Below, in pieces: positions 515 to 41,671 of a stretch of 42,662 nucleotides of DNA. The stretch's first letter is position 1. Every line of letters begins with the position of its first letter. Source of the DNA: a virus (Duplodnaviria > Heunggongvirae > Uroviricota > Caudoviricetes); IMG/VR virus record IMGVR_UViG_3300046011_008537, one strand, 5' to 3'. Position numbers and translations under genes: made by a program. Below the pieces are notes generated by a model that was not told the origin of the DNA, did no database searches, and worked only from the letters and a program-made list of their open reading frames with translations.

Positions 515-1153
515 GACTTTTTTCTTACACTTATCAAAATGATATCGTTGCATATTAGTTGCTCCTCCAGTTTTATAGCAATAAGGGCATGTAATTTTTA
601 GTTGTGGAATACCTTTTAATGAAGATGGTTTACTTTTCATAATAATGGATAATTTTATTTTAGTTTCTTCTAAACATGGTTTCCCTTTATTTGCATTTGA
701 CAATTTTATTCTATGTTCTTTTGTAGGCGATTTTCCTTTATTAGATGTAGATATCTTATCTCTATGCTCTTTAGAGTTTGTTTTGTTATATCTCGGGTGA
801 TTTTCTCGTGACATATTCATACCATAAAACCCATTTGGTTGGGCATATGATTTATTGATGAATAATGGGTTTTTAACAACATTAAATAATTTTTGAATTT
901 GCAATTCTTTATAGGTAGCCGATGGTCTAGTATCATGATATGAGATAATTTCAATAGAGAATAAATGTGGGTTGGTTTTTAACTCCAATTCCCATAAAGC
1001 TTTAAATTGTTTAGAACAAACTGAACCCTTATATCCACGTTTAATATTATCTATAGTAGATGATCCAATATAATTTTGAGGAAATTTGTCGCCTGCATAC
1101 GTGGTATGATAAACAACATATTTTTGGTCTGAATATATACTTGTGCTGGTCAT
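503..1153 (-). CDS. GIY-YIG homing endonuclease (Seg-like) with NUMOD3 repeats and a C-terminal Cys/His zinc-finger-like motif
   Basis: VVY...YIGS motif; repeats SKEHRDKISTSNKGK, TKEHRIKLSNANKGK and LEETKIKLS; CPYC...RYHFDKC tail; AGGAG RBS upstream of the ATG. Confidence 0.85.
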   Translation of the reverse strand: MTSTSIYSDQKYVVYHTTYAGDKFPQNYIGSSTIDNIKRGYKGSVCSKQFKALWELELKTNPHLFSIEIISYHDTRPSATYKELQIQKLFNVVKNPLFINKSYAQPNGFYGMNMSRENHPRYNKTNSKEHRDKISTSNKGKSPTKEHRIKLSNANKGKPCLEETKIKLSIIMKSKPSSLKGIPQLKITCPYCYKTGGATNMQRYHFDKCKKKVLTK

Positions 1154-1181
1154 AGGTTACTCCTAGAAAAGAATGATTAGT

Positions 1182-1227
1182 GCTAGTGGAGCCTCGGAAC
1201 TCGCGACTAGCTTTTAGTTTATTTATA
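1182..1227 (-). promoter_or_regulatory. T4 late promoter TATAAATA (1227-1220) plus a leader hairpin upstream of the endonuclease
   Basis: Exact TATAAATA on the minus strand, then GCTAGT-CGCG-AG-TTCCGAGG-CT-CC-ACTAGC (1211-1182); a homologous copy lies at 3513-3558. Confidence 0.75.
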
Positions 1228-1234
1228 AAAATGC

Positions 1235-1263
1235 TTGCTTTATTTTTATATATAACGTATAAT
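1235..1263 (+). promoter_or_regulatory. Sigma70-type early promoter
   Basis: TTGCTT (1235-1240), 17-nt spacer, TATAAT (1258-1263). Confidence 0.7.
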
Positions 1264-1287
1264 AATATTTTTTAATGGAGTTTGTTT

Positions 1288-1623
1288 ATGTTTATAGTTA
1301 AATCGAAAAATCAGTTTGGTGAGGAAATCTTAGTAAATCCAGAAAAAATTGCTTATGCAGTTCCTTCTTCTGGAGGTCAAGAAACAGTTATCTTTTTTGA
1401 TAATGATACTCATATCAGTGTATTAGAGTCATTTGTTGATTTTAAAAAAAGGTATGCTAAACCTACAGTTAAACTTTCTGTTGAGAAGGATGTCGTTTTT
1501 ACTGAAGAATTGGTTAATGCTGCTAATGCATATCCAGAACACTTACCTCGTCTACCAACAGGAAATGTCGATAAACGTACTAATCAATATAAAGAATGGA
1601 TTGCATCGAAAGAAGCTGCATAA
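1288..1623 (+). CDS. Hypothetical protein; N-terminus resembles FlbD-family small beta proteins
   Basis: ORF track 1282-1623; ATG at 1288 lies 7 nt after GGAG. GEEILVNPEKIAY...TVIFF...ISVLESF pattern. Confidence 0.6.
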   Translation: MFIVKSKNQFGEEILVNPEKIAYAVPSSGGQETVIFFDNDTHISVLESFVDFKKRYAKPTVKLSVEKDVVFTEELVNAANAYPEHLPRLPTGNVDKRTNQYKEWIASKEAA

Positions 1624-1658
1624 ATAAATAATCATATTATCCCTATTGGAATTAAATT

Positions 1659-1931
1659 GTGCCAATCTATCCATTAAAAAATACTGAAACTGGCGAAATC
1701 TTTGAGAAAATTATGAAGATTGCCGAATATGAAGAATATGTTAAAGATAATCCTCATATTCAAAGATATTATGATTCTGAATGTTCAAAAACTAGTTTCG
1801 GCGACCCAGTTAGACTAGGAATTAAAAAACCGCCTGCTGATTTTATGAAAGGCGTTATTGGGAGAATGAAAGAGTCTATCCCTGGAAATACACTCCATGA
1901 TAGAAAGTTTCAAATTCCAAAGGAATATTGA
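1659..1931 (+). CDS. FmdB-like (zinc-ribbon-derived) small protein commonly found upstream of phoH in T4-like phages
   Basis: GTG start; MPIYPLKNTETGEIFE...EYVKDNPHI motif; position before phoH. Confidence 0.6.
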   Translation: MPIYPLKNTETGEIFEKIMKIAEYEEYVKDNPHIQRYYDSECSKTSFGDPVRLGIKKPPADFMKGVIGRMKESIPGNTLHDRKFQIPKEY

Positions 1932-1948
1932 GATGTTCGTATAGTAGT

Positions 1949-1992
1949 AAAAAAGACCCGCGAATCGACTAATAATCGGTAAGCGGGTTTTT
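1949..1992. terminator. Hairpin flanked by A and T tracts, probable intrinsic terminator or processing site
   Basis: AAAAAAG-ACCCGC...GCGGGT-TTTT in the intergenic gap before phoH; the loop is long (21 nt). Confidence 0.45.
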
Positions 1993-2020
1993 CACTTTAA
2001 ATCAACCATAAAAGGAATTT

Positions 2021-2725
2021 ATGTTAAAACCTAAAAACAGATCTAAAAAATCAGCAAATAGAGTTTCTGCATTGCATTTTGAATTAAAAAAAATCTATCC
2101 AATGACAGAAAACCAAAAGAAAGTGTTTGATTTGTATGATGAAGGAAAGAACCTAGTCGTGTATGGTAGTGCTGGTTCTGGAAAAAGTTTTTTAAGTTTA
2201 TATCTAGGTCTAAAAGAAATGCTTGATGAAGCGGCATTTAGTAAAATCGTAATCCTGCGATCTGCTGTTGCAACTAGGGATTTAGGATTTCTTCCTGGAA
2301 CTGAACGAGAAAAAATATCTGTTTATGAAGCTCCATATCGGTCAATAATTAACGAATTATTTGGTCGCGCTGATGCTTATGATATTATGAAACAAAAAGA
2401 TATTATCGAATTTGAATCCTCTTCATTTTTGAGAGGTTTAACATATGCCAATTGTTTAATTTTCGTAGATGAAATTCAAAATATGACATTACATGAAATC
2501 TCGACAATCGTAACAAGATTAGGGGAAAATTCAAAAATTATTTTTGCTGGGGACGTTCGTCAGTCAGATTTAAATGAACGAAAAGAAAATTCAGGAGTTA
2601 AAGATTTAATTTCTATTGCCACAATTATGTCTGAATTTTCTTTAGTTGAATTTACTGTTGACGACATCGTGCGTTCAGATATCGTTAAAAGTTTTCTTAT
2701 TGCTAAAGAAAAATTAAATTTATAG
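2021..2725 (+). CDS. phoH: PhoH-family ATPase
   Basis: Walker A GSAGSGKS; RDLGFLPG, FLRGLT, DEIQN and GDVRQSD motifs characteristic of PhoH. Confidence 0.95.
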   Translation: MLKPKNRSKKSANRVSALHFELKKIYPMTENQKKVFDLYDEGKNLVVYGSAGSGKSFLSLYLGLKEMLDEAAFSKIVILRSAVATRDLGFLPGTEREKISVYEAPYRSIINELFGRADAYDIMKQKDIIEFESSSFLRGLTYANCLIFVDEIQNMTLHEISTIVTRLGENSKIIFAGDVRQSDLNERKENSGVKDLISIATIMSEFSLVEFTVDDIVRSDIVKSFLIAKEKLNL

Positions 2726-2726
2726 A

Positions 2727-3476
2727 TTAAATGTGTTTATGGTTTTTAAATATCCAACCAGTATTTATTCCATATTTCGATATTTTACCATTAGAACCTT
2801 TTGCTGAACTATAATTTAAATTGTGTTCTTTACAAAATTCTTTTAATCGTGTAGTTTTATATTCTTGATTAAATTTGGTGTTTATACATACCCACTTATA
2901 TGATTGACTTTCGGATATTTTTGGGTATGTTTTCCCTGTTCTACTAATTGATAAATTTTTCTTGTGTTCTTCGGATTTTTTTATTCCAGTTAATGCAATT
3001 GATATATTATTTTTTTGTTGTTTGGTTCTACTTTGCCCGTTATTTGCAATTGATTTTTTTATACTGGATTCAATAGACATAACTTTTCCTGTTTGCGCAA
3101 GACTCATTTTTATTTTAGTTTGTTCTGATATTGTTTCTGAATTTGATCCTCCATCCAATCCATTTTCAAAGATTAAGTTAGCCCAATCATCCGACTCAAC
3201 AATATTATTTTCATAAGAAAAATTTAAAGCAAAAGAAACTAATTCATCTATATTGGTAAACAATTTATACCATTTGGTTTCAATATATTGTTTTCCATAT
3301 TTTTGTATATGTGATTTCCAATACTTACCTGACCCAAGATATTTTATTGGATTATTTCTCGTAGTTTTACAAAAATATTTTTTGCCTGTAATTTGATGCT
3401 GCTTGATCATCAAATATGTTGGTTTAAATTTTGAACGTTGATATTCTGTAATAATATAAGTATTTGTGCTGAACAT
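2727..3476 (-). CDS. Free-standing GIY-YIG-variant homing endonuclease with NUMOD3 repeats
   Basis: TYLMIKQHQITGKKYFCKT...YLGSGKYW...WANLIFENGLDGG catalytic domain; SEQTKIKMS and SEEHKKNLS repeats; GGAG RBS. Confidence 0.8.
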   Translation of the reverse strand: MFSTNTYIITEYQRSKFKPTYLMIKQHQITGKKYFCKTTRNNPIKYLGSGKYWKSHIQKYGKQYIETKWYKLFTNIDELVSFALNFSYENNIVESDDWANLIFENGLDGGSNSETISEQTKIKMSLAQTGKVMSIESSIKKSIANNGQSRTKQQKNNISIALTGIKKSEEHKKNLSISRTGKTYPKISESQSYKWVCINTKFNQEYKTTRLKEFCKEHNLNYSSAKGSNGKISKYGINTGWIFKNHKHI

Positions 3477-3512
3477 TAATGTTCTCCATGAATATTGTAA
3501 GGAATGTTTAGT

Positions 3513-3558
3513 GCTACTGGGAATTGGCGTTCCGCGAGTAGCTTTTTTATTATTTATA
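3513..3558 (-). promoter_or_regulatory. T4 late promoter TATAAATA (3558-3551) plus a leader hairpin upstream of the second endonuclease
   Basis: Exact TATAAATA, then GCTACT-CGCG-GAA-CGCCAA-TTC-CC-AGTAGC (3542-3513). Confidence 0.75.
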
Positions 3559-3578
3559 GTTTAATAGAGAGAAATAAA

Positions 3579-4229
3579 ATGAATTTTTGTCATGTTAATA
3601 TTGAATTAACGGAATACCCAAGAGTTGATATAAATGGTAGCAGGCACTATCAAATAGGTCATAAATGTTATCCATCTATTACCAATGTCTTGGGTTCCAC
3701 TGCTGATAAAACTTATCTTAATGAATGGCGGAAACGCATTGGAGATAACGAAGCTGATCGTATTTCCGCCAATTCATCTAAAAGAGGAACTAATCTTCAC
3801 CTAATGTGCGAAGATTACCTCAACAATAGACCTCTTTCTTGTAAAATGCCTGATGCATTAGAAATGTTCTATTCGCTTAAACCTGTTTTAAATAGAATTA
3901 ACAACATTCATTGTCAAGAAGCAACTCTATACAGCGATAAATTGCAAATTGCTGGAACTGTTGATTGTATTGCTGAGTTTGATGGATTATTATCTGTAAT
4001 TGATTTTAAGAATTCCCGTAGGGATAAAAAAGAAGAGTGGATTCAAGATTATTTACTACAAGAAACTTTTTATGCCCTAGCATATCAAGAAATGACTGGT
4101 AGTAAAATTAAACAGATCGTGACAGTAATTGCGGTTGAAGATCGAAAACCTCAAGTTTTCGTCAAGGAAATTAGACCTTATATCAAGCCATTAGTTGAGC
4201 GAAAAAAGTTATATTTAAATAAATATTAG
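3579..4229 (+). CDS. PD-(D/E)XK (Cas4-like/lambda-type) exonuclease of T4-like phages
   Basis: YPSIT.VL, EWRKRIG, RGTNLH, AGTVDCIAE, IDFKNS motifs. True start taken as ATG 3579; the track start at 3504 runs through the antisense regulatory hairpin. Confidence 0.85.
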   Translation: MNFCHVNIELTEYPRVDINGSRHYQIGHKCYPSITNVLGSTADKTYLNEWRKRIGDNEADRISANSSKRGTNLHLMCEDYLNNRPLSCKMPDALEMFYSLKPVLNRINNIHCQEATLYSDKLQIAGTVDCIAEFDGLLSVIDFKNSRRDKKEEWIQDYLLQETFYALAYQEMTGSKIKQIVTVIAVEDRKPQVFVKEIRPYIKPLVERKKLYLNKY

Positions 4230-4252
4230 ATACACATTTATTAAGGATTAAT

Positions 4253-5122
4253 ATGAAAACTTTTAAACAATTTATTTTTGAATCAGAAAAACCAAAAGAA
4301 TACGAAATAATTTCCAATAGTCATGGAACTCATGCTTCTCTAGATAAACATACTAAAAAGCCATATCATGACAAACCAAAAGAATATGAAATAATTTCTA
4401 ATAGTCATGGATCTCATGCAAGTAAACCAACAAAACTAAAAGAAAATACTGAGCATCCTAGTTTTGAAGAGCATTTTTTACCTAAAATTAAATCTGCTGA
4501 TGATCGCATCAAATTTAATAAAGGTATGGATGATCATATGGATAATTTGCACGAAACTCATCCTCATTCAGCTAGAGGAGAATTTCATCAAAATTTTTTC
4601 ACGCAAGGTTCTTCGGGTATAACTGCAGATTTAATTGGTCATCATACAGAAGGTACACCATTAAAACATGGTAAATTTGTAAACGATTTGGATAAACATG
4701 GGTTCGTACCAGCTAAACATAAATTCGATACCTATTCTGGTGTTGGTTTTAATATTAAAAACGCAGAGCCAGCTGGAAAAAGTAAACAAGGTAATTCAGT
4801 TTATCATCAACCGACTTATCTATCTTCTTCTATCGATAAAAATGTCGCTCGTTCTTTTGCGTTTACTGCTGCTAGTCGAAATAGATCCAAAGATGTTCAT
4901 ATATTGCATTGGCATCACAATGAACACGATCCAGTTGGCGTTGTTGGTAAGCATAGCCAATATTCTCATGAACACGAAGTATTAATTCCCAGAACAGAAA
5001 CTACTGCTTCAAGACATCATATTGAACATATGAGAACTGACAAATATAGCGATAATTATGATAACATAATTCATGTTCATCACGTTAAAAGAGTTCCTGA
5101 ATCGGAAATAGTAAAAGGCTAA
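4253..5122 (+). CDS. ADP-ribosyltransferase (Alt/exoenzyme-like fold) with a putative capsid-targeting N-terminus
   Basis: YLSSSIDKNVARSF (STS motif) and EHEVLIPR (ExE motif); N-terminus MKTFKQFIFE resembles T4 internal-protein MKTYQEFIAE; His-rich. Confidence 0.7.
   Translation: MKTFKQFIFESEKPKEYEIISNSHGTHASLDKHTKKPYHDKPKEYEIISNSHGSHASKPTKLKENTEHPSFEEHFLPKIKSADDRIKFNKGMDDHMDNLHETHPHSARGEFHQNFFTQGSSGITADLIGHHTEGTPLKHGKFVNDLDKHGFVPAKHKFDTYSGVGFNIKNAEPAGKSKQGNSVYHQPTYLSSSIDKNVARSFAFTAASRNRSKDVHILHWHHNEHDPVGVVGKHSQYSHEHEVLIPRTETTASRHHIEHMRTDKYSDNYDNIIHVHHVKRVPESEIVKG
4289..4419 (+). repeat. 47-bp direct repeat pair (4289-4335 and 4373-4419) encoding KPKEYEIISNSHG(T/S)HA
   Basis: Two copies 84 bp apart with 3 mismatches. 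Confidence 0.95.
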
Positions 5123-5123
5123 T

Positions 5124-5849
5124 ATGAAAACGTTTAAACAATTAAAAGAAGAGTTGATTAAAGTATCTGGACAAAAAGGGTCAAATCCAGGTGGCACATA
5201 TAGGGATACTAAGAAAAATACTGAACATTATATTAAACATCCAGATAATCCAGATCAAGCAAAAACAGAAGTTTTATCTTCTAAACTTCATGAATTAATG
5301 GGAATTCACACACTTAAACCTAAATTAGTTAATATTGAACATAATAAAACTTCAGTATCAACAGAATTTAATCATAATCTTGAACCAGTTACCTCTAAAC
5401 ATATTCCCCATTTAACTAGCAAACACCATAAACAATTAGGTAAAATCTATGCTGCTGGTGTTCTTACTAAAAATTGGGATGCAATGGGAACTGGAATTGA
5501 ATATGGTCAAGGAAACGTTTCCCTAGATAAAAAGAAAGGTCATCTTGTTTCAACAGACCAAGGCGGATCTTTTAATTTTAGAGCACAGGGCGGACATAAA
5601 GATTATGGACATGATATAGCAGAAAAAGATTCTTTGAAAAACCCTAGTATGTCAGAGGGAGCTAAGTTCTTTAATAAAGCAATGGAACATCCTGGAGTTC
5701 GAGAACATGTTGTTAACTCATTAAAAAGTATGCACCCAGATAAAGTTCATAAGGCGTTTAAATCCTCTGGATTAAGTAACTGGGAAGAATTACATAATAA
5801 TTTTAAACAAAGACATAAAAAACTGCTTGACAATCTAGAATCTTCGTAG
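5124..5849 (+). CDS. Atypical kinase-like protein (HipA/PI3-PI4K-like fold) with a putative capsid-targeting N-terminus
   Basis: Gly-rich loop QKGSNPGG, HYIK lysine, helix-C EVL, catalytic NWD...GN, metal-binding DQG; begins MKTFKQLKEE. Confidence 0.6.
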   Translation: MKTFKQLKEELIKVSGQKGSNPGGTYRDTKKNTEHYIKHPDNPDQAKTEVLSSKLHELMGIHTLKPKLVNIEHNKTSVSTEFNHNLEPVTSKHIPHLTSKHHKQLGKIYAAGVLTKNWDAMGTGIEYGQGNVSLDKKKGHLVSTDQGGSFNFRAQGGHKDYGHDIAEKDSLKNPSMSEGAKFFNKAMEHPGVREHVVNSLKSMHPDKVHKAFKSSGLSNWEELHNNFKQRHKKLLDNLESS

Positions 5850-5855
5850 TATAAT
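5827..5855 (+). promoter_or_regulatory. Consensus sigma70 promoter
   Basis: TTGACA (5827-5832), 17 nt, TATAAT (5850-5855). Confidence 0.85.
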
Positions 5856-5888
5856 AAATTTATGTTAACTTTGAGCGGGAATTAAATT

Positions 5889-6245
5889 ATGTGGATATGT
5901 ACAAATTATGGGTTTTTTAGTATTGTTAAAGTAAATCCATTATATATAAATGATGGTGATAATGCTGTAAATGAAGTTTTTGCTATTAGAGCTAGAGATA
6001 TAAAACATTTACAGCACGGGTTTCCAAATAAAAAAGTTTTTCAATACCCTAACTCAGATTATGGATACAGGGTATATTTGACTGTAGAAGAATTAAATGA
6101 ATTTTTGTTAAATGAAGTTCAACAAATAAATTATGCTAACTTTAAAAATTCAGTTAAAGATTCCAAATTACATAAATTCTTTAGTGAGATTTGGTATTTG
6201 GGAGTTTCTATTTTATGCGATAAACCTAATAATCGGAGGGTATAA
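5889..6245 (+). CDS. Conserved phage hypothetical protein
   Basis: MWI...GFFSIV...IRAR...DY.YRV...INY.NFK pattern recognised as a recurrent phage family of unknown function; own early promoter. Confidence 0.7.
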   Translation: MWICTNYGFFSIVKVNPLYINDGDNAVNEVFAIRARDIKHLQHGFPNKKVFQYPNSDYGYRVYLTVEELNEFLLNEVQQINYANFKNSVKDSKLHKFFSEIWYLGVSILCDKPNNRRV

Positions 6246-6248
6246 ATA
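6241..6248 (+). promoter_or_regulatory. T4 late promoter
   Basis: Exact TATAAATA overlapping the upstream stop codon, ahead of the hydrolase gene. Confidence 0.7.
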
Positions 6249-6379
6249 CTCCTATATCATTAAGTTTTGAAATTTTTTAACAAAATTAGTAGCTTTTCAG
6301 GAAAAGATAAGTCCTAATTTCATAATTAAAAGTATTCCGCTGTGACTGTATTGGATACTTTTTAAGGAGAAAAACAAAG

Positions 6380-6871
6380 ATGTATTCAATTGCGAAAAAG
6401 GCGATAATTCTTGCTATTCTAATAATAATATCAAAAGCGAGTTTCGCAGAATCGTTATATGACGAATCAGAAAAAACGTGCTTGGCTAAAGTAATTTATC
6501 ATGAAACCAGAGGAGAACCGCTATCTGGTAAAAAAGGTGTAGCTAAAGTTGTCTTAAATCGAAAATCCGATAAACATTTTCCCAAAACAATATGTTCAGT
6601 AGTTAATGAAATTACTACTCGTAAAGGGAGAAAAGTCTGTCAATTTTCATGGGTATGTACCCGACCCAAAATTAAATGGGGTAGTGCTGAGTGGAAAAAT
6701 AGTTTAGAATTATCTAATGATATTCTAAGCAACAAGGTTTCTCTTCCAGACTTTGGTTTAAATGTATTGTTCTTCAGAAGTATTTACTGTAGAAAGGGGT
6801 TTGGAAAGGGTAATTACAAGCTAGTGTCAAAACTAGGTAAAACTAACTTTTATACAAAGAAGATTGCTTAA
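6380..6871 (+). CDS. SleB/Hydrolase_2 cell wall hydrolase with a signal-peptide-like N-terminus
   Basis: CLAKVIYHETRGE...VAKVVLNR...FPKTICSVV...CQFSW; hydrophobic N-terminal helix; AAGGAG RBS. Confidence 0.9.
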   Translation: MYSIAKKAIILAILIIISKASFAESLYDESEKTCLAKVIYHETRGEPLSGKKGVAKVVLNRKSDKHFPKTICSVVNEITTRKGRKVCQFSWVCTRPKIKWGSAEWKNSLELSNDILSNKVSLPDFGLNVLFFRSIYCRKGFGKGNYKLVSKLGKTNFYTKKIA

Positions 6872-7095
6872 TGGAAAACTTTGAAGAAATGCATAAATTC
6901 TCGAATATTATTTTTGATAAAGTAAAATCGAGTAAACTAGAGTATCTGGATGCAATTGTATCGTACTGCTCGGAAAAGGAATTGGAAGTTGATTCGATTA
7001 TATCGCTGATATCTCCAGCTCTTAAATCTAAAATGGAAGAAGAAGCTATTGGGCTGAGGTTGATAAAAAATTCATCTCCGCGCTTGACTTTTTAA
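6871..7095 (+). CDS. gp33: Late-promoter transcription coactivator gp33
   Basis: YLDAIVSYC.E..LE...I..LI...LKSKMEEEA motif; directly upstream of gp59 and gp32. Confidence 0.85.
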   Translation: MENFEEMHKFSNIIFDKVKSSKLEYLDAIVSYCSEKELEVDSIISLISPALKSKMEEEAIGLRLIKNSSPRLTF

Positions 7096-7112
7096 AAGTA
7101 GTATAGTATAAT
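7084..7112 (+). promoter_or_regulatory. Sigma70-type promoter for gp59-gp32
   Basis: TTGACT (7084-7089), 17 nt, TATAAT (7107-7112). Confidence 0.8.
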
Positions 7113-7132
7113 TATTGAGTAGGTGAAACAAA

Positions 7133-7729
7133 ATGTCAGGATATACAGCTTGTTGCTTATATCGAGCCTTAAAACTACATTTTACAACAGATTATGATTT
7201 CAATAAGTATAAAGGAAAAGTAAAATATACTCCTGCGCAGTTTGATAAAAATTCACATAAATATGTGTATGAAAAACTTGCAAAGAAATTTAGCGATGAG
7301 GATCTTAAAAAATTCTTTATCGCTAATTTTTTGCAAAACGAAAACGTATGGGTTCAAGACTTGTTATCGCAGGAAGCATATGAAAATTTCGTAAAGTTTA
7401 ATACGAAATGTCAATCATTATCTTATGTATTTGAAGGCGAGTTAATATCAATTTTTGGTGAAGAAAATCATAAATTGTTATTCAAATCAAATAGTGATGA
7501 CCTTCCGTTATTATTAACGAAGTTATTACGAAATGAAGTTTCTCCGGAAACTATATTAATTATGAATGAGTTTTTACATTTTCTACCTAAATGGGAAGTA
7601 AATATTAAAGATGAATTTGTTTGGCCGAAAGTTAAACTTAAATTGTTTAAATATAGGTCGTTTTTAGAGTATGATAAAAGTAAATTCAAAAAGACGTTTA
7701 TTAATACAGTTAAAGAATTTACCGAGTGA
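7133..7729 (+). CDS. gp59: Helicase loader gp59
   Basis: Y.ALKLHFT.DYDFNKY.GK N-terminus, FIANFL, ETILI; between gp33 and gp32. Confidence 0.9.
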   Translation: MSGYTACCLYRALKLHFTTDYDFNKYKGKVKYTPAQFDKNSHKYVYEKLAKKFSDEDLKKFFIANFLQNENVWVQDLLSQEAYENFVKFNTKCQSLSYVFEGELISIFGEENHKLLFKSNSDDLPLLLTKLLRNEVSPETILIMNEFLHFLPKWEVNIKDEFVWPKVKLKLFKYRSFLEYDKSKFKKTFINTVKEFTE

Positions 7730-7790
7730 AATAAGTTGTGTTAAGTTGTTAATACATTGTTTAAATTAATTGTTAATAAGGTGTTTATAT

Positions 7791-8723
7791 ATGGACTTTT
7801 CTAAATTAAAAAAATCATCAGGCTCAAACTTAGAAAAAATGGCTAAAGCTGTTGAGCAAATGGCTGGCGGAAATCAAAATAGCGATGCAGATGAATACTG
7901 GAAATGTGAGTTAGACAAATCTGGTAATGGTTATGCAGTTATTCGCTTTCTTCCAACATCTCCAAAAGATGCGGAATCAGATGGTCTTCCATGGGCAAAA
8001 TACTATGATCATGGCTTTCAAGGTCCAGGTGGTTGGTATATCGAGAAATCTTTAACGTCAATCGGTCTTGACGATCCGTTAGGAAAATATAATAGCGAAC
8101 TATGGGAATCAGGAATTGAGGCTAACAAAGAGCAAGCACGTAAGCAAAAACGTCGATTGCATTATGTCTCTAACATTTATATTGTTAAAGATACAAAACA
8201 TCCTGAACATGAAGGAAAAGTATTTAAATATGTTTATGGTAAGAAAATTTTTGAAAAAATTACTCAAGCCATGAATCCTCAGTTCGAAGATGATAAACCA
8301 ATCGATCCATTTGATTTCTGGTCTGGTGCAAACTTCAAATTAAAAATTCGTAAAGTTGATGGTTATCAAAATTACGATTTAGCTGAATTTGATAGCGCAG
8401 GTCCGTTGTTTGATGATGATGATAAATTAGAAAAACTTTGGAAATCACAATATTCTTTACAAGAATTATTGGAACCTAAAAACTTTAAATCTTATGCAGA
8501 TTTAGATGCTAGATTAAAAAGAGTTTTAGGTCAAACTAATCAATCAAAATATAAAACTGCTGAAGATTATACAGCAAAATCTCTTGATGAGGTTGAAGAT
8601 GAAGTATTTGTACAAAACGTAGTTGAAAAGAAAACTACTGCTTCATTTGCTAAAGCAGTAATTGATGATGAAGAAGATGATGATATGAGTTATTTCAGTA
8701 AATTAGTCGGTGATGATGACTAA
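7791..8723 (+). CDS. gp32: Single-stranded DNA-binding protein gp32
   Basis: GNGYAVIRFLP, HGFQGPGGWYIE, YGKKIFEKI, DPFDFWSGANFKLK, acidic tail; true start ATG 7791 (MDFSKLKK). Confidence 0.97.
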   Translation: MDFSKLKKSSGSNLEKMAKAVEQMAGGNQNSDADEYWKCELDKSGNGYAVIRFLPTSPKDAESDGLPWAKYYDHGFQGPGGWYIEKSLTSIGLDDPLGKYNSELWESGIEANKEQARKQKRRLHYVSNIYIVKDTKHPEHEGKVFKYVYGKKIFEKITQAMNPQFEDDKPIDPFDFWSGANFKLKIRKVDGYQNYDLAEFDSAGPLFDDDDKLEKLWKSQYSLQELLEPKNFKSYADLDARLKRVLGQTNQSKYKTAEDYTAKSLDEVEDEVFVQNVVEKKTTASFAKAVIDDEEDDDMSYFSKLVGDDD

Positions 8724-8726
8724 ATG

Positions 8727-8752
8727 AAAAAGGGAGCTTCGGCTCCCTTTTT
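8727..8752. terminator. Bidirectional intrinsic terminator with a C(UUCG)G tetraloop
   Basis: AAAAAGGGAGC-TTCG-GCTCCCTTTTT between convergent genes. Confidence 0.95.
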
Positions 8753-11665
8753 TTATGCTTCATGAGTATTGGTTCTCCACATATTGCCTTCTTCCATCAT
8801 TTTTATAGTTGGGTCGTCATTTCTAACAGGAGGCACTGATTTTGCTACCCCAGGATTATTTCTTGGAGGAGCAGCAGCTTGTTGCTGTGCTTGTTGAGGA
8901 GCTGTTTGGGTATTTCCCCCTCCTTGTTTCATATTTTCAATACCTTCTAGGTATTCCTTGCTTCCTGTAATATTATTACGCCTTTCATTTAACGCTCCCA
9001 TTTCCGTACTAATATCTTTTATGCGGTCTTCGTCTTTATTAAATTGTTCTCCGCTAACATTAACTGCCATACTTATGTTTTCGCGTTCGCTTTTTAAACT
9101 AGCCTTTTGCGCATCAATATCCCCAACTTCAGCTTGCATATCATCCATTTTAGAATTAGGAACTGGAGATGCTTTATTAGTCGACAACTTTTCTTCATTA
9201 GTTTTAGCACGGTCAGCAGATAATTTATCTTGTCTTTCGTGTATGCTATCTGTATCTTCGTCAAAAAATTCATATTTTGTTGAATTCATTTTATCAACTG
9301 CATCATTTAATAAATCAACTTGAGATTTATTATTATCTGGTCCAGTTGTATTTGTTACATTAAGTTTTTCTGAATCAGGAACATCGCTGTATGAGACAGG
9401 ATTTTCTTGACTGTTTGTTTCTGTATTTAATGGAAAATTATTACTTTCATCTGGGTTATAAGATGCATTAATAAAACCTGTATTATTTGGTTTTTCTATT
9501 TTAGTTATTGGTGTTGATGTTTTAGATTTTGATGCAGTTTGTATTTCATCAGATGGAGCATCCCCTACTTTTTTTCCATATGTCGCATAGTGATCAGCTA
9601 AAGCTTTTCCATATCTAGAACTAGTTGCATACCCAGAACTGCCCATCTCAGCAATAGCTTGCTCTGGGGTTTGAGCTTTTAATGCTTTATCGTATCTTTT
9701 AATTTTATTTTTCTCTAGAAAGTCAAATCTATCTTTAACAGAATCTTCTTCGGATTTATATCCTCTAAATCTAGATTTTTCTTTTGACATTTTACCGTTT
9801 CGTTCTTCTGGTGATGATAATTCACCAGTAGGGTCTGTAGTTCCTTGCCCTTTACCTGAATATTTTATACCGAATAAATTATTTTTAGGAACGTGATGCC
9901 CTCCTCCAGTCTCTTCTATGCTTTGTGATGCAGCTAAGTGAGCTTGCGCTTCCGGATTTTCTAAACCTCTTTGTTTTGCTTCTTTTAAAGCTAAGTTGTA
10001 AACTTTATCGTAATGTTCTTGATAATCTTTATGAGGGTTTTTAGATTTATTCCCCTTAATCGGCTCAGCAGTTTTTTCTGACCCACTAGCTGCTCCAGAA
10101 TAAGCTAAACCTGCAGCTGCAGCTCCACCAACAGCCACTCCTTTCAGAACTTTACCAACAGGAATTTTACTTAATACTTTACTCCAAATTCCTGAGCTTT
10201 TTTCGGATTCTTCTTTGTTTAAATCTACGCCCTCTCTTTCATCGCCACCGAAAATTGGAGATGCGGAACCTCCTCCGCCGCCACCGCCTTCGTTTTGTCT
10301 TGCACGTAAATTTTCAGAAGATAAATCTCTAGCAATATCTTGTTGAGATTGACCCTTAACCATAGCTGATACGTCTTTGGAAATTCCAACTACAGTGTCA
10401 TATGTTTTAGATAATATACTATAGATACTGTTTAAAACTTCAACGGCAGTTTTACCCGACATATCACCGCTACCAAAATGACTTTCTCCAGTTGTTCCAG
10501 AATCTCCTCCAGAGGGCATTGAACTTAATGTAGCTTCAGCTGAATTACCTGCTGGCATTAGAGCTCCCATACCTCCTACGACACCTCTAAATGGAGAACT
10601 ACTGCTACTTCCAACATATGCTCCTAGTGCTGCTCCAGGAATTTTTTCTCCATACTCACCAAGTAATTCTTTGCCTTTATTTTTTATTTTATCCCATACA
10701 CTTTCTTCTGTCGTGCCTTCTATAGCACCTTTTAATATATTTCCAGCTTCATCTACTAATCCAGGAAACTTTTCTGTTCCTGCGTCAACCAATTCTTGAG
10801 CTTTATTTTTTGCAGCAAGTTGATCTTCTTCTGATAATGTATTGTAAATTCCAGCTCCGATTCCAGTAGCAGCAGCTCCATACATGCCACCTTTAAGTAC
10901 ACTTTTTCCTAATGTTTTTCCTTCTGATAAAACTTGACGCCCAACAAATTTTCCGGCACCTGCTGCAGCGCCTCCTGCTTTATCTCCCATCCATTCTAAA
11001 GTTCTTCTGATATATCCTTTTTTATTTGGAGTAGTTTCGTCTTTAACTTCTTCTTTGGCTTTTTCAACTAATTTTTCTGTATTACTTTTAAATGGCGTAG
11101 ATTGTTTTCCTGCTTGCTGTCTTTGTTGCTGTACATATTCCTGAGCTTTTTTCTGTGCTTCTGCTTCTTTTTGAGCAGTTGCTGCAGCTTTAGCTTCATC
11201 TGCCAATTCAGTTTCGCTTTTAAATACATTACTATATTTTTTTAAAGAAGGAAGTTTTGATCCAATTGCTTCTGCTCCTCCTTTAAATATAGATCCACCA
11301 AGTTTTAACCCCCCTTTAACAGCAGCTCCACCAACAGCAAGTCCTGCGACATCAGTACCAAAAGAAATTAATGCTTTTCTTTGATTATCAATAATTTGTT
11401 GGTATTCTTTTTGACCTCCAGAAGCTCCGCCTAATTGAGCTGCTTCAACAAATCTTTGAGCATCATCTGCATTTGAAATCTTTTTTAATTGCTCTTGTTG
11501 TCTTGAGGTAAGCAAATTTGCTTTTGTTTCTCTATCAACAATATGTTGTCGTTCTACGCTATTCTTTTGAACCCTAGATAATTCTTCTTTTGTTTTATCG
11601 TATGCGCCAACAGCAAAATCTTTTGCGCTATCTAAAAATGATGAACCTGAATTATTATTTTCCAT
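8753..11665 (-). CDS. gp29-like hub/tape-measure-type protein with a GH73 (glucosaminidase/FlgJ-like) domain
   Basis: 970 aa, Ala/Gly/Lys-rich with glycine-zipper segments; ASQSIEETG...NNLFGIK...FRGY...SV.D...GYATSSRY at about 9580-10020; downstream of gp26 and the gp51-like ORF. Confidence 0.7.
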   Translation of the reverse strand: MENNNSGSSFLDSAKDFAVGAYDKTKEELSRVQKNSVERQHIVDRETKANLLTSRQQEQLKKISNADDAQRFVEAAQLGGASGGQKEYQQIIDNQRKALISFGTDVAGLAVGGAAVKGGLKLGGSIFKGGAEAIGSKLPSLKKYSNVFKSETELADEAKAAATAQKEAEAQKKAQEYVQQQRQQAGKQSTPFKSNTEKLVEKAKEEVKDETTPNKKGYIRRTLEWMGDKAGGAAAGAGKFVGRQVLSEGKTLGKSVLKGGMYGAAATGIGAGIYNTLSEEDQLAAKNKAQELVDAGTEKFPGLVDEAGNILKGAIEGTTEESVWDKIKNKGKELLGEYGEKIPGAALGAYVGSSSSSPFRGVVGGMGALMPAGNSAEATLSSMPSGGDSGTTGESHFGSGDMSGKTAVEVLNSIYSILSKTYDTVVGISKDVSAMVKGQSQQDIARDLSSENLRARQNEGGGGGGGSASPIFGGDEREGVDLNKEESEKSSGIWSKVLSKIPVGKVLKGVAVGGAAAAGLAYSGAASGSEKTAEPIKGNKSKNPHKDYQEHYDKVYNLALKEAKQRGLENPEAQAHLAASQSIEETGGGHHVPKNNLFGIKYSGKGQGTTDPTGELSSPEERNGKMSKEKSRFRGYKSEEDSVKDRFDFLEKNKIKRYDKALKAQTPEQAIAEMGSSGYATSSRYGKALADHYATYGKKVGDAPSDEIQTASKSKTSTPITKIEKPNNTGFINASYNPDESNNFPLNTETNSQENPVSYSDVPDSEKLNVTNTTGPDNNKSQVDLLNDAVDKMNSTKYEFFDEDTDSIHERQDKLSADRAKTNEEKLSTNKASPVPNSKMDDMQAEVGDIDAQKASLKSERENISMAVNVSGEQFNKDEDRIKDISTEMGALNERRNNITGSKEYLEGIENMKQGGGNTQTAPQQAQQQAAAPPRNNPGVAKSVPPVRNDDPTIKMMEEGNMWRTNTHEA

Positions 11666-39160: not shown

Positions 39161-41671
39161 ATGCCAATTGGTATCGGAACACAAATTAGAAGAACCATAG
39201 TTAATGCAGGAACAACAACTATAAGCATTGGCTCAGGGAATCAAGCATTTCCATTTGGGGTTAATTCAGTTAAAGTTAATATGAGTGGAAATCCAGGAAC
39301 AGCTGGCATTGCAGGTAAAGGAGGATCAGCAGGATTAGCTGGTCCTGGAAGTTGCGGTGGAGCTGGAGGTCCTGGAGGAGCTGCAGGTAAAGGCGGTAAA
39401 GGAGCTTGCGGTGGTCCTGGAGGTTGCGGTGGAGCTGGAGGTACTGCTGGCATTGCAGGTAAAGGCGGTAAAGGAGCTTGCGGTGGTCCAGGAGGCGCAG
39501 GAAGTGCCGGAGGAACTGGGGGAGCTGGAGGTACTGCAGGAGCATATTTAGGGTTAGGGGTGTTAGGTGGTCCTGGAGGTTGCGGTGGAGCTGCAGGTAA
39601 AGGTGGAGCTGGCGGAACTGCAGGAACTGCAGGAAAAGCCAGTTGCGGTCCAGCTGGACTTGGTGGTCCAGGAGGCGGAGCAGGAGGAGGATCTTCATCT
39701 ATTTCCTGCGGCTCATATTCGCCCACTAAATTTATTTTTACTGGAACTGGTGGAGCAGGAGGAGCATCTTGCTGGCACGCAGGAGCAGCAGGTGGAACTG
39801 GATCTATATATTCTCCTACTCCAGTAGCTATTTTAGGGGGATATGGAGGATTCGCATATGGTGCAACTGGAACTTTATATGGCAGTCCTGGAGAAGTTAC
39901 TACAGGTAGAGGTGGAACATACGGTAAAGCTACTACTGCATGCTCGGTAACTTATTCAAGCGGAAATAGAGGAACTGCTGGGGGAACAACATTAAATTCT
40001 AGTTTTTGCTGTTCTAATTCGTCTTATACGAATATTGCTGGAGCACAAGGCGGGGGCGGAGCTGGCGGAGCAGCATTTCGTTGGAAATCTAATTGTTGGT
40101 ATTCAACTGGTGGAGGAGGCGGAGGTGGAGCTGGATCTCCAGGAGGAGCAGGAGTTGCAGGTTCAGTATGGGGCGCAGGAAAAGGCGGAGCTGGTAGCGC
40201 GGGAGCTGCTGGCTCCCCTGGACAATGCGCTCCAAATACTTTTAAGTACACCTTATGTCCAGTAAATTCAACATATTTTTGCGGAAGTTGCAGGGGTTAT
40301 GCCGGCGGATTTGGAGTAGCTGGAGCTAATGCTGCTTTAGATGGTTCTTGTGCGCCAAACACATGGGCATTAACTTGCCCATCAAATAGCATTCAATTTT
40401 ATGGAAATTGTAGAGGTTATGCTGGAACAAAAGGTACAGAAGGAGGTTGCGGTACTAATGGTATATGCGCTCCAAATTCTTGGCTTGTAACTTGCCCAAC
40501 AAACGGGCTTACTCATTATGGGTGGTATAAAGGTTTTGTTGGTACTGCAGGAGCTCCTGGTATCGATGGTTCTTGCGCTACCAGTTGTGCTCCAAATACG
40601 TGGACTTCTTGTTCTGGAAATTCTGGAAATGCCGGAACTCCAGGAACTGATGGAAATCAATCTTCTATTTTTTGTATAATTGCTAAAGGAGGAACTGCTG
40701 GTACTGCAACTGCTGGAACTCCAGGAACCGCAGGAACTAAAGGCACGAAAGGAGCTAAAGGAGCTAAAGGTTATACTGGTAATGCAGGAGCTTGTGGTAA
40801 TGTAGGGTTTGCAAGTACATATAAAGGCGCAAAAGGGTCTAAAGGATCTAAAGGTACTGATGGCACCTATGGATTCGCCGGATATAAAGGATTAAAAGGA
40901 GTAAAAGGCGCCAAAGGTTACACGGGAAATAATGGATGTACCGGAGGTAAAGGATATAAAGGAACAAAAGGCTCTCCTGGTGGACAAGGTGTAACTGGAT
41001 GTCCAGGTAATGATGGAACAGCTGCTATTGCTGGGGTAGGTACTGCAGGAAATTGGGGAGGAGGCGGAGCTGGAGGCTATGCAGGTTCTATATTCAATTC
41101 CAAATTATATGTACCAACAGTTTTTGGTAGCGATGGAGCAACATATCCAGGAGGCGGAGCTGGAGGTATCGGAAAAGCGTGCGTAGGTCAATCAATGACA
41201 GGTTCTCCAGGAACTGCAGGAACTGTTGGCGTTTCAACTCAAGGAAAAGCTGGAACTGTTGGCGCAACCGGAAAAGATGGTAATGCAGGAACTCCTGGAT
41301 GTATAGGTTTAAGGGGTAACGTAGGACCTGCAGGAAATCAAGGAAAAGATGGAAGTGCTGGAACTCCAGGAACTGCTGGAAATGCCGGAACTCCCGGAAA
41401 AGATGGAACTCCTGGATCAGTTGGAAGCGTAGGTCTTAAAGGTGCATCAGGAACTCCAGGTAATACTGGGGCTGATGGAAATTCAGGAAAAAATGGATGC
41501 ATAGGTCTTAAAGGCGCATCCGGATCTGCAGGATCCCCAGGAAAAGATGGTAGCGCAAATTGCGGGGGGGCTGCAGATACGCTTAGTTGCGTTAGCGCAA
41601 AAATTTCTTCTAGAGTTTCATATCCATATGTTGCTGCGCAAAAAATTACCGTTTCATGGCCAAGACAATAA
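39161..41671 (+). CDS. Glycine-rich, collagen-like (Gly-X-Y), Cys-rich fibre or appendage protein
   Basis: Long Gly-X-Y tracts at both ends, poly-Gly stretches, repeated CAPN(T/S) Cys modules; AAGGA RBS. Confidence 0.75.
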   Translation: MPIGIGTQIRRTIVNAGTTTISIGSGNQAFPFGVNSVKVNMSGNPGTAGIAGKGGSAGLAGPGSCGGAGGPGGAAGKGGKGACGGPGGCGGAGGTAGIAGKGGKGACGGPGGAGSAGGTGGAGGTAGAYLGLGVLGGPGGCGGAAGKGGAGGTAGTAGKASCGPAGLGGPGGGAGGGSSSISCGSYSPTKFIFTGTGGAGGASCWHAGAAGGTGSIYSPTPVAILGGYGGFAYGATGTLYGSPGEVTTGRGGTYGKATTACSVTYSSGNRGTAGGTTLNSSFCCSNSSYTNIAGAQGGGGAGGAAFRWKSNCWYSTGGGGGGGAGSPGGAGVAGSVWGAGKGGAGSAGAAGSPGQCAPNTFKYTLCPVNSTYFCGSCRGYAGGFGVAGANAALDGSCAPNTWALTCPSNSIQFYGNCRGYAGTKGTEGGCGTNGICAPNSWLVTCPTNGLTHYGWYKGFVGTAGAPGIDGSCATSCAPNTWTSCSGNSGNAGTPGTDGNQSSIFCIIAKGGTAGTATAGTPGTAGTKGTKGAKGAKGYTGNAGACGNVGFASTYKGAKGSKGSKGTDGTYGFAGYKGLKGVKGAKGYTGNNGCTGGKGYKGTKGSPGGQGVTGCPGNDGTAAIAGVGTAGNWGGGGAGGYAGSIFNSKLYVPTVFGSDGATYPGGGAGGIGKACVGQSMTGSPGTAGTVGVSTQGKAGTVGATGKDGNAGTPGCIGLRGNVGPAGNQGKDGSAGTPGTAGNAGTPGKDGTPGSVGSVGLKGASGTPGNTGADGNSGKNGCIGLKGASGSAGSPGKDGSANCGGAADTLSCVSAKISSRVSYPYVAAQKITVSWPRQ

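Follow-up and report, generated by a model that had tools for sequence, protein, structure and literature searches.

Genes A and B, two adjacent phage genes, encode a predicted ADP-ribosyltransferase (ART) and a predicted kinase, and both proteins begin with a decapeptide of the type found on the internal proteins of phage T4. Because this T4-type tag heads both enzymes, they would probably be packaged in the phage head and injected ready-made with the DNA. We give a probability of about 70% to the explanation as a whole, in which the ART and the kinase are tagged, packaged, cut by a gp21-type protease and injected as a functional pair, encoded by a variable island of effector genes in an uncultured, T4-like aquatic myovirus. 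The window, the whole stretch of DNA analysed here, has a length of 42.6 kb.

The gene pair and its N-terminal decapeptide

4253..5122, plus strand: gene A, 289 aa, starting MKTFKQFIFE; tagged precursor of a predicted C3/VIP2-like ART without the canonical Arg
5124..5849, plus strand: gene B, 241 aa, starting MKTFKQLKEE; tagged, predicted CtkA/HipA/PI4K-like kinase, with the fold in residues 11–241
4253..4282, plus strand: tag of A (residues 1–10, MKTFKQFIFE), with candidate head-protease site I-F-E at residues 8–10, followed by Ser
5124..5153, plus strand: tag of B (residues 1–10, MKTFKQLKEE), with candidate site L-K-E at residues 7–9

An earlier note on this DNA had described two genes 1 nt apart with these N-termini, and the ORF coordinates and translations agree with it: A closes with a TAA whose last base is 5122, and B opens with the ATG at 5124. 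It had also called both proteins Cys-free and His-rich, unlike their neighbours, and our recount was identical, with 33 His in the 289 residues of A (11.4%), 19 in the 241 of B (7.9%) and no Cys in either. The other listed ORFs of the window with at least 80 aa mostly contain 0.2–3.3% His; only one exceeds 4.3%, a minus-strand ORF of 140 aa (7.1%) that lies within an 836-aa gene and is probably not a real gene. Across the two families, His content ranges from 6.9% to 13.2% in 20 relatives of A and from 3.8% to 12.3% in 27 relatives of B, and Cys is absent from almost all of them. Such Cys-poor families would fit, weakly, proteins that unfold through the tail channel; the argument is weak because the structural proteins of the window vary from 0 to 4.1% Cys, and Cys-poverty was rejected as a virion marker on that same range.

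The tag MKTYQEFIAE, which the earlier note gives for the T4 internal proteins, was found in ipII and ipIII of the T4 record, where ipI starts with MKTFKEF and gene 61.1 with MKTFKEFIKE. The tag of A is identical to that of IPII/IPIII at 6/10 positions, to that of gp61.1 at 8/10 and to IPI at 6 of its first 7 residues. It has F7, I8 and E10 in common with IPII/IPIII, carries F instead of Y at position 4, and is the best-conserved N-terminal block among the close relatives (0.91). According to mutagenesis in T4, targeting depends on residues 4 and 7 of the tag and processing on residues 8 and 10 (PMC9026906). These determinants are complete in A (F4, F7, I8 and E10) and partial in B (F4, L7, K8 and E9/E10), which has the processing part only in part. 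Processing of B, and perhaps its targeting, is less certain because L7 and K8 replace the F7 and I8 of T4. An (I/L)-x-E site had been claimed for both N-termini; it stands as proposed in A, while in B it is shifted and less T4-like.

In the window only A and B bear the tag, and only four ORFs do so in G002, a near-identical relative of 126 kb (91% identity for A and 96% for B); chance therefore does not account for the N-terminus that the two proteins have in common. A DNA pattern for MKTFKQF(I/M), scanned in IMG/VR, matched at least 120 viral contigs, in which at least 105 unique ORFs begin at the tag and carry cargo from at least 69 BLAST-unlinked groups. The tag is present on 28 of the 35 unique stand-alone B-type kinases, and it stays at residue 1 even with domains inserted behind it, as in P0050 and P0051, where an extra domain of about 170 aa separates tag and kinase. 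Other tagged cargo includes ART-PolyVal, Tox-ART-HYD1, Zeta-toxin kinase and glucosaminidase domains, types that were predicted to be virion-delivered (PMC5512222). As judged from this distribution, the decapeptide is supported as a portable tag that would correspond to the capsid targeting sequence of T4. Both AlphaFold2 models show the tag region as disordered. No tag-bearing gene was found in the four cultured marine T4-like phages Syn9, S-PM2, P-SSM4 and HTVC008M, three of which reportedly have published virion data, and a 58-aa tagged ORF of G002 had no match by tblastn against 50,697 phage records.

At each position of the tag different synonymous codons are in use, which therefore points to selection on the peptide, and the DNA upstream of the tag genes is not conserved. 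In addition, position 10, which the pattern leaves unconstrained and where the P1 residue of the protease would lie, is Glu in 84 of the 105 tag-headed ORFs (80%) among the matches listed. Both observations, together with the constant place of the tag at residue 1 and the fusion, seen in other phages, of the same enzyme pair to portal or MuF proteins, argue against an alternative that we consider unlikely, namely that A and B are cytoplasmic host-modifying enzymes made after infection, like T4 ModA and ModB. The decapeptide would then be a remnant, or would serve translation initiation, stability or, as a recombination handle, cassette swapping. Such an origin would suit the position of the cassette amid early-type replication genes (exonuclease, gp59 and gp32) and the fact that no late promoter is detectable for it; T-even internal-protein loci are also recombination hot spots, according to Repoila et al. 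as cited in PMC9026906.

Predicted folds and catalytic residues

4466..5101, plus strand: ART catalytic domain of A, residues 72–283, with motifs T160-Y-S162-G, S191-S-S193 and E240-H-E242
4298..4420, plus strand: H-G-x-H repeat of A, two copies of E-Y-E-I-I-S-N-S-H-G-x-H-A at residues 16–28 and 44–56, in a disordered linker
4436..4444, plus strand: second candidate head-protease site of A, L62-K63-E64, at the boundary between linker and ART domain

The AlphaFold2 model of A (pLDDT 78.9) matched C3 exoenzymes with a Foldseek probability of 1.0, and its comparison in VIA gave Z 15.2 to Plx2a (rmsd 2.7 Å over 168 residues), 15.0 to C3cer and 14–15 to C3 enzymes. A has the fold of C3 exoenzyme, VIP2, iota and Plx2a (Z 13–15), including the N-terminal helical subdomain, as well as their S-T-S motif and E-x-E-(V/I)-L-(I/L)-P-R catalytic strand. 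Unlike these enzymes, which have an Arg in strand 1, A has a Ser; it also lies below the Pfam threshold (ADPrib_exo_Tox, 18.4 bits against a cut-off of 23.4) and is very His-rich. Its homologues form 25 clusters, and three distant ones have a precomputed PF03496 match. PHROGs and NCBIfam gave no match to A, nor did tblastn against the 50,697 phage records; the profile of A retrieved no ART from the PDB sequences, and hhalign of this profile with the ART domain of phage Jeremy gave a probability of 1.7%.

Residues T160, G163, S191–193, E240 and E242 are invariant in the alignment of 20 A sequences. The position of the canonical Arg, at the end of strand 1, is an invariant Ser (T-Y-S-G) in this alignment and S, H or A, never R, in 18 divergent relatives that keep S-T-S and E-x-E; it was placed by motif and predicted strand rather than by superposition. 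No Arg was found in residues 150–190 of A. Arg280 (H-H-V-K-R), invariant in the close relatives, was rejected as a substitute, as it is not kept in the divergent ones. Because the conserved Arg is missing, A is filed as a variant R-S-E ART and not as a canonical member of the class; the earlier reading of A as an ADP-ribosyltransferase holds for the fold and fails for this residue. The model leads to the prediction that A is active as a mono-ADP-ribosyltransferase of the C3/VIP2 type, with an altered NAD pocket, and its E-x-E motif suggests an arginine acceptor; given the missing NAD-binding Arg, activity, or NAD as the donor, is not assured.

The linker before the ART domain has features of its own. 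Its repeat motif was found only in A-family ARTs among all loci examined, with two copies in the members listed and one to three across the wider family, and I20, N22, H24, G25 and H27 are invariant in the A alignment; residues 29–66 have a pLDDT below 50. E64 is at least 90% conserved in the same alignment, and a hydrophobic-x-Glu occurs at its position in most of the 18 divergent aligned proteins of the family, even in those whose tag is without Glu10. From this conservation, A would seem to be synthesised with a long propeptide, with a putative cut at the hydrophobic-x-Glu that follows the H-G-x-H repeats.

B had been read as a kinase, and its model bears this out with a bilobal fold of pLDDT 91.4, in which only residues 1–8 lie below 50. 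The VIA comparison gave Z 17.3 to CtkA of Helicobacter pylori (rmsd 3.0 Å over 208 residues), followed by PI4K type II beta (15.2), CotH (14.3) and the bacterial kinase complex 7vkb (13.7; HipT 13.6); over CtkA, HipA/HipT, type II PI4K and actin-fragmin kinase, which have the fold in common with B, Z ranges from 17.3 to 11.7. The Gly-rich loop, the Lys-Glu pair, the catalytic Asp/Asn pair and the metal-binding D-x-G of this branch are present in B, which differs from it by having no sequence-level family membership, a K-N-W-D catalytic loop and a compact size of 230 residues. Among 27 sequences, G19, N21, K38, E49, K116-N-W-D119, N131 and D145-x-G-G are invariant, and G23/24 invariant or nearly so; the catalytic roles were assigned by residue order and spacing rather than by superposition. 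B had no Pfam or NCBIfam match at E ≤ 0.1 and no PHROG match, and only its language-model neighbours carry the names HipA_2 or PI3_PI4_kinase. Its homologues form 61 clusters, and the best AlphaFold DB matches are central domains of proteins of about 1100 aa named ‘ADP ribosyltransferase domain’ (TM 0.82). On the basis of this model, an active kinase of the CtkA/HipA type is predicted for B, with protein Ser/Thr kinase as the most likely activity. A kinase family described in 2017 has lost the C-terminal subdomain and occurs mainly in phages of Verrucomicrobia-Chlamydia and Bacteroidetes (PMC5512222); it may be different from the B family.

A evolves fast: its dN is 2–5 times that of the neighbouring genes and its dN/dS is 0.22–0.47, versus about 0–0.27 for the neighbours. 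The fast-evolving parts are the surface helices and the loop before E-x-E, and the number of ART copies varies from one to two among the relatives. These rates and the copy-number variation would represent an arms-race signature.

These data also bear on a very unlikely alternative, that A and B are packaged but function inside the head or are not delivered active, being charge-balancing, DNA-organising or protease-degraded scaffold-like proteins. The catalytic motifs are invariant across 31–91% identity in both families and therefore argue for selection on enzyme activity, and the changing surface of A points to a changing external partner. B is indeed basic (pI 9.4), and His and Lys are frequent in both proteins, as would be expected by analogy with the T4 internal proteins, abundant basic proteins within the DNA (PMC3012670), and several T4 core proteins are tagged only for destruction; mature A, on the other hand, is near neutral (pI about 7–7.5), and there is no ATP or NAD inside the capsid.

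A third gene and promoter-like sites

5889..6245, plus strand: orf118, untagged 118-aa protein of a large unnamed phage family, after the kinase
5827..5855, plus strand: candidate sigma-70 promoter, TTGACA, 17 nt, TATAAT, inside the 3′ end of B and facing orf118
4218–4225, plus strand: AATAAATA, T4-late-promoter-like octamer, 27 nt before the ATG of A, inside the 3′ end of the exonuclease gene

By gene order, the conserved unit is A, B and a third, untagged gene, orf118, which is new relative to the pair described earlier. Of the 35 unique stand-alone B genes, 24 are followed within 60 nt by a gene of the orf118 family on the same strand, often after a gap of 0–17 nt, and 27 have one anywhere in the locus. 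Residues M1, W2, R34, R36, D57, R61, Y82, F85, K86 and W102 are invariant in the orf118 family, which comprises 1107 representative clusters at E ≤ 0.001. PHROGs and NCBIfam gave no match to orf118, its longer relatives carry no Pfam domain, and no similarity was found between orf118 and the gene that follows the ART-kinase protein of phage Jeremy.

This small conserved gene, and the structural closeness of B to the toxins CtkA and HipT/HipA, could suggest that kinase and orf118 form a selfish or exclusion module of the toxin-antidote type (as HipA-HipB or HipT-HipS), with the ART as a fellow traveller and the tag as incidental. However, the orf118 family extends far beyond the kinase and in other phages also adjoins genes for DNA polymerase A, NUDIX, ArdC and ribonucleotide reductase; it is therefore unlikely to be a dedicated kinase antidote. 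No orf118-like domain was found inside the large fused kinase-ART head proteins, and such a module would leave the tag on most stand-alone kinases unexplained. We regard it as highly improbable.

The candidate promoter before orf118 matches 12/12 consensus positions and is the best in 1000–9000; the next best (11/12) precedes gp59. Near A, the only plus-strand match of 10/12 (4368–4395) is within the gene itself, and no sigma-70 match of at least 9/12 was found between 3847 and its ATG. With regard to late transcription, the earlier note had reported only AATAAATA near 4218 and no exact TATAAATA upstream of A. Both statements were confirmed, and the octamer proved to be without statistical weight: ATAAATA occurs 36 times in the window versus 43.6 expected from composition, and late-type motifs lie upstream of 12% of 116 tag-bearing genes versus 17% of 1016 control ORFs. 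AATAAATA is therefore no evidence on timing, because the motif is at chance level and not enriched upstream of tag genes. A and B may be transcribed by read-through from the upstream early-type exonuclease gene.

An extended reading, which we hold to be quite unlikely, would join the three genes in a timed ‘inject, act, switch off’ system. The H-G-x-H propeptide would keep the ART latent in the producing cell, and the prohead protease would arm it by cutting. Kinase and ART would act on one target or adduct, the kinase phosphorylating for example the ADP-ribose mark or an adjacent residue, and this would account for the repeated finding of the kinase beside, or fused with, ARTs of four Pfam types and NUDIX domains. 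orf118, made early from its own perfect sigma-70 promoter, would silence or redirect the injected kinase, and the loss of the canonical Arg may reflect a changed reaction, or a donor that is not plain NAD.

Known systems and the proposed delivery

The association of kinase and ART is not restricted to this locus. An A-family ART lies within 4 kb of the B gene, in either orientation, in 20 of the 35 unique stand-alone B genes, and the ARTs that B-type kinase domains adjoin or are fused to belong to at least four Pfam types. P0051 and L155 carry an HYD1-type ART fused to the kinase; L189 combines a portal protein, a B-type kinase and an exoenzyme ART; L196 combines MuF, kinase and a DRAT-type ART; L212 combines MuF and kinase; and in Felix-O1-like phages kinase and ART lie inside proteins of about 1200 aa. 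By analogy, the portal and MuF fusions would give independent support for packaging of the ART-kinase pair. The predicted complex of the A domain with B had a score of 0.00 in a run without controls, which was given no weight for or against the pair. No publication on the ART-kinase pair was found in the literature.

Among known systems, the T4 internal proteins resemble A and B by the decapeptide pattern M-K-T-(F/Y)-(K/Q)-(Q/E)-F-I-x-E at residue 1 of unrelated cargo, by the hydrophobic-x-Glu protease site that ends the tag, by a variable locus and by a gp21-type protease in the lineage. They differ in being small inhibitors or DNA-binding proteins, while A and B are predicted enzymes of 25–30 kDa and putative cargo; A has an apparent, much longer propeptide with H-G-x-H repeats, and the tag of B departs at positions 7–8. 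As for gene neighbourhood, A and B are flanked by a PD-(D/E)XK exonuclease gene on one side and by cell-wall hydrolase, gp59 and gp32 genes on the other. The ip genes of T4 adjoin the lysozyme gene e and nudE, a point of synteny that is only suggestive and was given no weight.

T4 Alt, which keeps the catalytic Arg, belongs with A to the R-S-E structural class of ARTs. It is unlike A in its size of about 70 kDa, in its 7-residue propeptide instead of a tag of the internal-protein type and in having no dedicated kinase partner, and no sequence similarity between A and Alt was detectable in the phage collection. Alt is carried in the head, trimmed by gp21 and ejected, and as infection starts it modifies proteins of the host (PMC9503650, PMC9026906). 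The polyvalent, MuF- and portal-fused effectors, such as L189, L196, L212 and those of phages Jeremy and Mecenats66, hold B-type kinase and ART domains together on the same proposed principle, whereby modifying enzymes enter the cell ready-made along with the DNA (Iyer et al. 2017 PMC5512222; Iyer et al. 2022 PMC9503650). They are single polypeptides anchored by MuF or portal, whereas A and B are separate genes with their own short tags and stand outside that class.

The window itself is without a head module, and the gp21 gene is known from close relatives. G002 has genes for portal, gp21 protease (98 bits to Peptidase_S77), scaffold and gp23, and G001 also has a gp21-type protease. The gp23 propeptide of G002 presents L-M-E before Gly, which we take to be the position of the T4 gp23 cut. 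As inferred from T4, the tags of the A and B precursors would dock to the scaffolding core of the prohead, where the gp21-type protease would cut after Glu. A would be cut after I-F-E10 and probably again after L-K-E64, which would remove a propeptide of about 64 residues with both H-G-x-H repeats and free an ART domain of about 25 kDa; B would be cut after L-K-E9 or E10. The mature enzymes would remain in the DNA-filled head and exit via the tail with the DNA, and could therefore act on their targets before phage transcription.

The principle, T4-type tagged injection, is known, and the cargo is a widespread and unstudied enzyme pair. Provided that the tag has the same function as in T4, sequence alone would reveal which proteins a T4-like phage injects, and in these aquatic phages they would be enzymes and not small inhibitors. 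The decapeptide is also a candidate loading tag for the engineering of non-coliphage relatives of T4, and an ART without the Arg and with an apparent long propeptide would offer a case of a phage enzyme armed by a protease. The ART-kinase pair recurs across very different phages and is joined in three ways, by short tag, MuF fusion and portal fusion, a recurrence that suggests a common strategy for the first minute of infection, directed against the host or its defences.

Gene content and neighbourhood of the cassette

The window (32% G+C) represents part of the genome of a T4-like myovirus; genes for the baseplate, tube and neck follow farther along. Its gp32 shows only 52–55% identity to those of marine cyanomyoviruses and of viruses from single-cell genomes; therefore, the phage is an uncultured relative and not a known one. 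The features of the region are as follows.

2727–3476, − strand: homing-endonuclease-like gene (PHROG 314, weak NUMOD3 match), between orf234 and the exonuclease gene
3504–4229: PD-(D/E)XK exonuclease
4253–5122: ORF A, 289 aa, N-terminus MKTFKQFIFE
5124–5849: ORF B, 241 aa, N-terminus MKTFKQLKEE
5827–5855, + strand: putative promoter with a perfect sigma-70 consensus (TTGACA-17-TATAAT), inside the end of ORF B and facing orf118
5889–6245, + strand: orf118, untagged
6380–6871: SleB-type cell-wall hydrolase
7084–7112, + strand: second putative sigma-70-type promoter, near-perfect (11/12), just 5′ of gp59
7133–7729: gp59 helicase loader
7791–8723: gp32

The homing-endonuclease-like gene has a 100% identical copy in the loci L007 and L010 and is missing at this place in L005, L008, L011 and L012, whose exonuclease aligns from residue 23 onward only; this pattern suggests a mobile insertion by which the 5′ terminus of the exonuclease reading frame was altered. 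Amid the tail and fibre genes, an 836-aa ORF (39161–41671, + strand) has a composition opposite to that of its neighbours, with 4.1% Cys and 0.2% His.

The promoter before gp59 fits the use of host-type early promoters by the phage. No promoter match of at least 9/12 was found from 3847 to the ATG of A, and late-promoter motifs gave no support for late expression.

Across 68 viral loci, 53 unique B-type kinase domains were identified: 35 stand-alone, 2 in mid-sized fusions and 16, all untagged, embedded in proteins of 543–1632 aa. An A-family ADP-ribosyltransferase (ART) lies within 4 kb of 20 of the 35 stand-alone kinases, upstream or convergent, and a HYD1-type ART is fused directly to the kinase in the B homologue P0051 and in locus L155. 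A homologue of orf118 follows the kinase on the same strand, within 60 nt downstream, in 24 of the 35. The ART and the kinase are thus a functional pair in a unit of more than two genes, and we hypothesize a specific link between orf118 and the kinase. The orf118 family, which has no family name, comprises 1107 representative clusters and elsewhere in phages is found 3′ of genes for DNA polymerase A, NUDIX, ArdC or ribonucleotide reductase. Among its structural neighbours in the ESM Atlas is a bacterial cluster that carries a NUDIX fusion.

The N-terminal tag and its cargo

The earlier note had described adjacent genes 1 nt apart that share an N-terminal peptide like that of T4 internal proteins, with 33 (A) and 19 (B) His and no Cys. 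All of these features were confirmed from the ORFs. Both families are His-rich and Cys-free across 31–93% identity, so the composition is not a local accident.

The peptide also proved to be as described. In the T4 record, ipII and ipIII begin with MKTYQEFIAE, ipI with MKTFKEF and gene 61.1 with MKTFKEFIKE. T4 genetics assigns residues 4 and 7 of this sequence to targeting and residues 8 and 10 to processing (PMC9026906). ORF A carries F4, F7, I8 and E10, and ORF B carries F4 and L7, followed by K8, E9 and E10. A scan of IMG/VR with a DNA pattern for MKTFKQF(I/M), position 10 left free, matched at least 120 contigs. Among the matches listed, 105 unique ORFs begin at the tag, 84 of them with Glu at position 10, and their cargo falls into 69 groups without a BLAST link. 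Every tag position uses all synonymous codons and the DNA upstream is not conserved; therefore, selection acts on the peptide. The shared decapeptide is a portable tag: in two B homologues an additional domain of ~170 residues is inserted between it and the kinase, and further tagged cargo includes ART-PolyVal, Tox-ART-HYD1, a Zeta-toxin-type kinase and glucosaminidase, types that Iyer et al. predicted to be virion-delivered (PMC5512222).

Tagged ORFs are few per genome, two in the window and four in G002, a 126-kb relative. No gene of the cultured marine T4-like phages Syn9, S-PM2, P-SSM4 and HTVC008M fits the loose DNA pattern for the tag, which therefore marks other T4-like lineages.

In locus L031 (IMGVR_UViG_3300025288_000189; 6505–9422, − strand), a 3-kb stretch holds four tagged genes whose cargo is unrelated (158, 119, 275 and 175 aa). 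A 58-aa tagged ORF of G002 (L142:16891–17067) has MKTFKQFLEE followed by a Gly/Ala/Thr-rich stretch, and resembles both T4 gp61.1 (L218:667–831) and a group of ~60-aa tagged ORFs in five IMG/VR contigs; it may represent a small protein conserved across T4-like phages.

Evidence for a probable location in the head

In G002, A and B are 91% and 96% identical to those of the window and the gene order is kept. This genome encodes the portal, the Peptidase_S77 (gp21) protease, the scaffold and gp23, whose propeptide has L-M-E followed by Gly immediately N-terminal to the conserved capsid core, at the place that corresponds to the T4 gp23 cleavage site behind L-T-E.

The tag is present on 28 of the 35 stand-alone kinases. 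Pfam was run on six of the large untagged proteins, with these architectures among them.

L189:1928–5443 (IMGVR_UViG_3300050119_000049), 1171 aa: complete Phage_portal_3 (E 1e-106), B-type kinase (685–912), exoenzyme-type ART (979–1142)
L196: MuF, kinase and DRAT-type ART
L212: MuF and kinase
L209 (743–4942): kinase interrupted by NUDIX; weak exoenzyme-ART match (19.4 bits, under the 23.4 cut-off)

The Felix-O1-like phages Jeremy and Mecenats66 also have the kinase with a C-terminal ART in proteins of ~1200 aa, and in AlphaFold DB, B is matched best by the central domains of ~1100-aa proteins named for an ART domain (TM 0.82). Thus, where the T4 tag is not used, phages link this enzyme pair to head proteins by covalent fusion, and these fusions independently support a head location of the pair.

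In the L189 product, both enzymes are attached to the inward-facing end of a portal protein. In L209 the kinase is split into an N-lobe (~808–857) and a C-lobe (~1085–1196) around the NUDIX domain (929–1042), and it is likewise split in the large protein of L211:1091–4936.

The tag and the ART domain of A are separated by a disordered segment in which E-Y-E-I-I-S-N-S-H-G-x-H-A occurs twice. This motif is found in one to three copies per A-family ART and nowhere else among the loci compared. A hydrophobic-x-Glu site (L62-K63-E64 in the window) directly follows the repeats in most of 18 aligned members, even where position 10 of the tag is not Glu. In giant phages, the propeptides of head proteins are long and contain several sites of this type (PMC5694885). 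We infer that the whole ~64-residue N-terminal region of A is a propeptide cut off in the prohead.

The reading of the cassette as a packaged, co-injected enzyme pair is supported by evidence that is indirect but convergent. For A and B we infer packaging, cleavage, ejection, activity and targets alike, and estimate a probability of about 70% that both are packaged in the head.

Predicted activities and evolution of the locus

The enzyme identities proposed earlier, an ART for A and a kinase for B, agree with the models. B had no match in Pfam, PHROG or NCBIfam; its model (pLDDT 91) is a compact kinase fold, nearest to CtkA (Z 17.3, 208 residues), then to type II PI4K, CotH and HipT/HipA. Across 27 sequences there is no variation in the Gly loop, K38, E49, the K-N-W-D119 loop, N131 or D145-x-G-G, and B is therefore predicted to be an active enzyme.

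The sole Pfam match of A, with the exoenzyme ART family, was below threshold (18.4 bits). Its model, built from 20 homologues (pLDDT 79), places residues 72–283 in the C3/VIP2/iota/Plx2a fold (Z 15.2, rmsd 2.7 Å over 168 residues). S191-S-S193 and E240-H-E242 (the latter preceding V-L-I-P-R) do not vary in the alignment, nor does the strand-1 motif T-Y-S-G; no Arg occurs in residues 150–190. Eighteen more distant A-family proteins beside B-type kinases retain S-T-S and E-x-E; at the strand-1 position they have Ser, His or Ala, and none has Arg. Several of them have Y-H-G-T, which resembles the diphtheria-toxin/PARP motif and which we regard as a lead only. In C3-like enzymes E-x-E usually indicates an arginine acceptor, and by this rule the motif of A points to arginine as its putative acceptor.

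Among relatives, identity is 84–100% for the flanking genes and only 69–91% for A, the dN of A is 2–5 times higher and its dN/dS is 0.22–0.47. The changes are concentrated in the helical subdomain (81–150), residues 201–210 and 261–270 and the loop before E-x-E (231–240). Conservation is highest in the tag and in T-Y-S-G. In some relatives the ART is present as two paralogues in tandem; from one relative, B and orf118 are both missing. Such a pattern fits a fast-turnover effector island of the kind seen in the T-even ip loci.

In L006, the 3′ end of the exonuclease gene is present again as a ~90-nt copy (5884–5973; residues 202–241, 67% identical) directly 5′ of the ART gene, ~800 nt past the intact exonuclease gene, an arrangement that suggests that the cassette moves along with an upstream exonuclease piece.

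No paper was found on this tag variant or on the ART–kinase pair. The locus would represent T4-style capsid-targeted cargo, in which an ART without the usual Arg and a CtkA-like kinase form a widespread and unstudied module.
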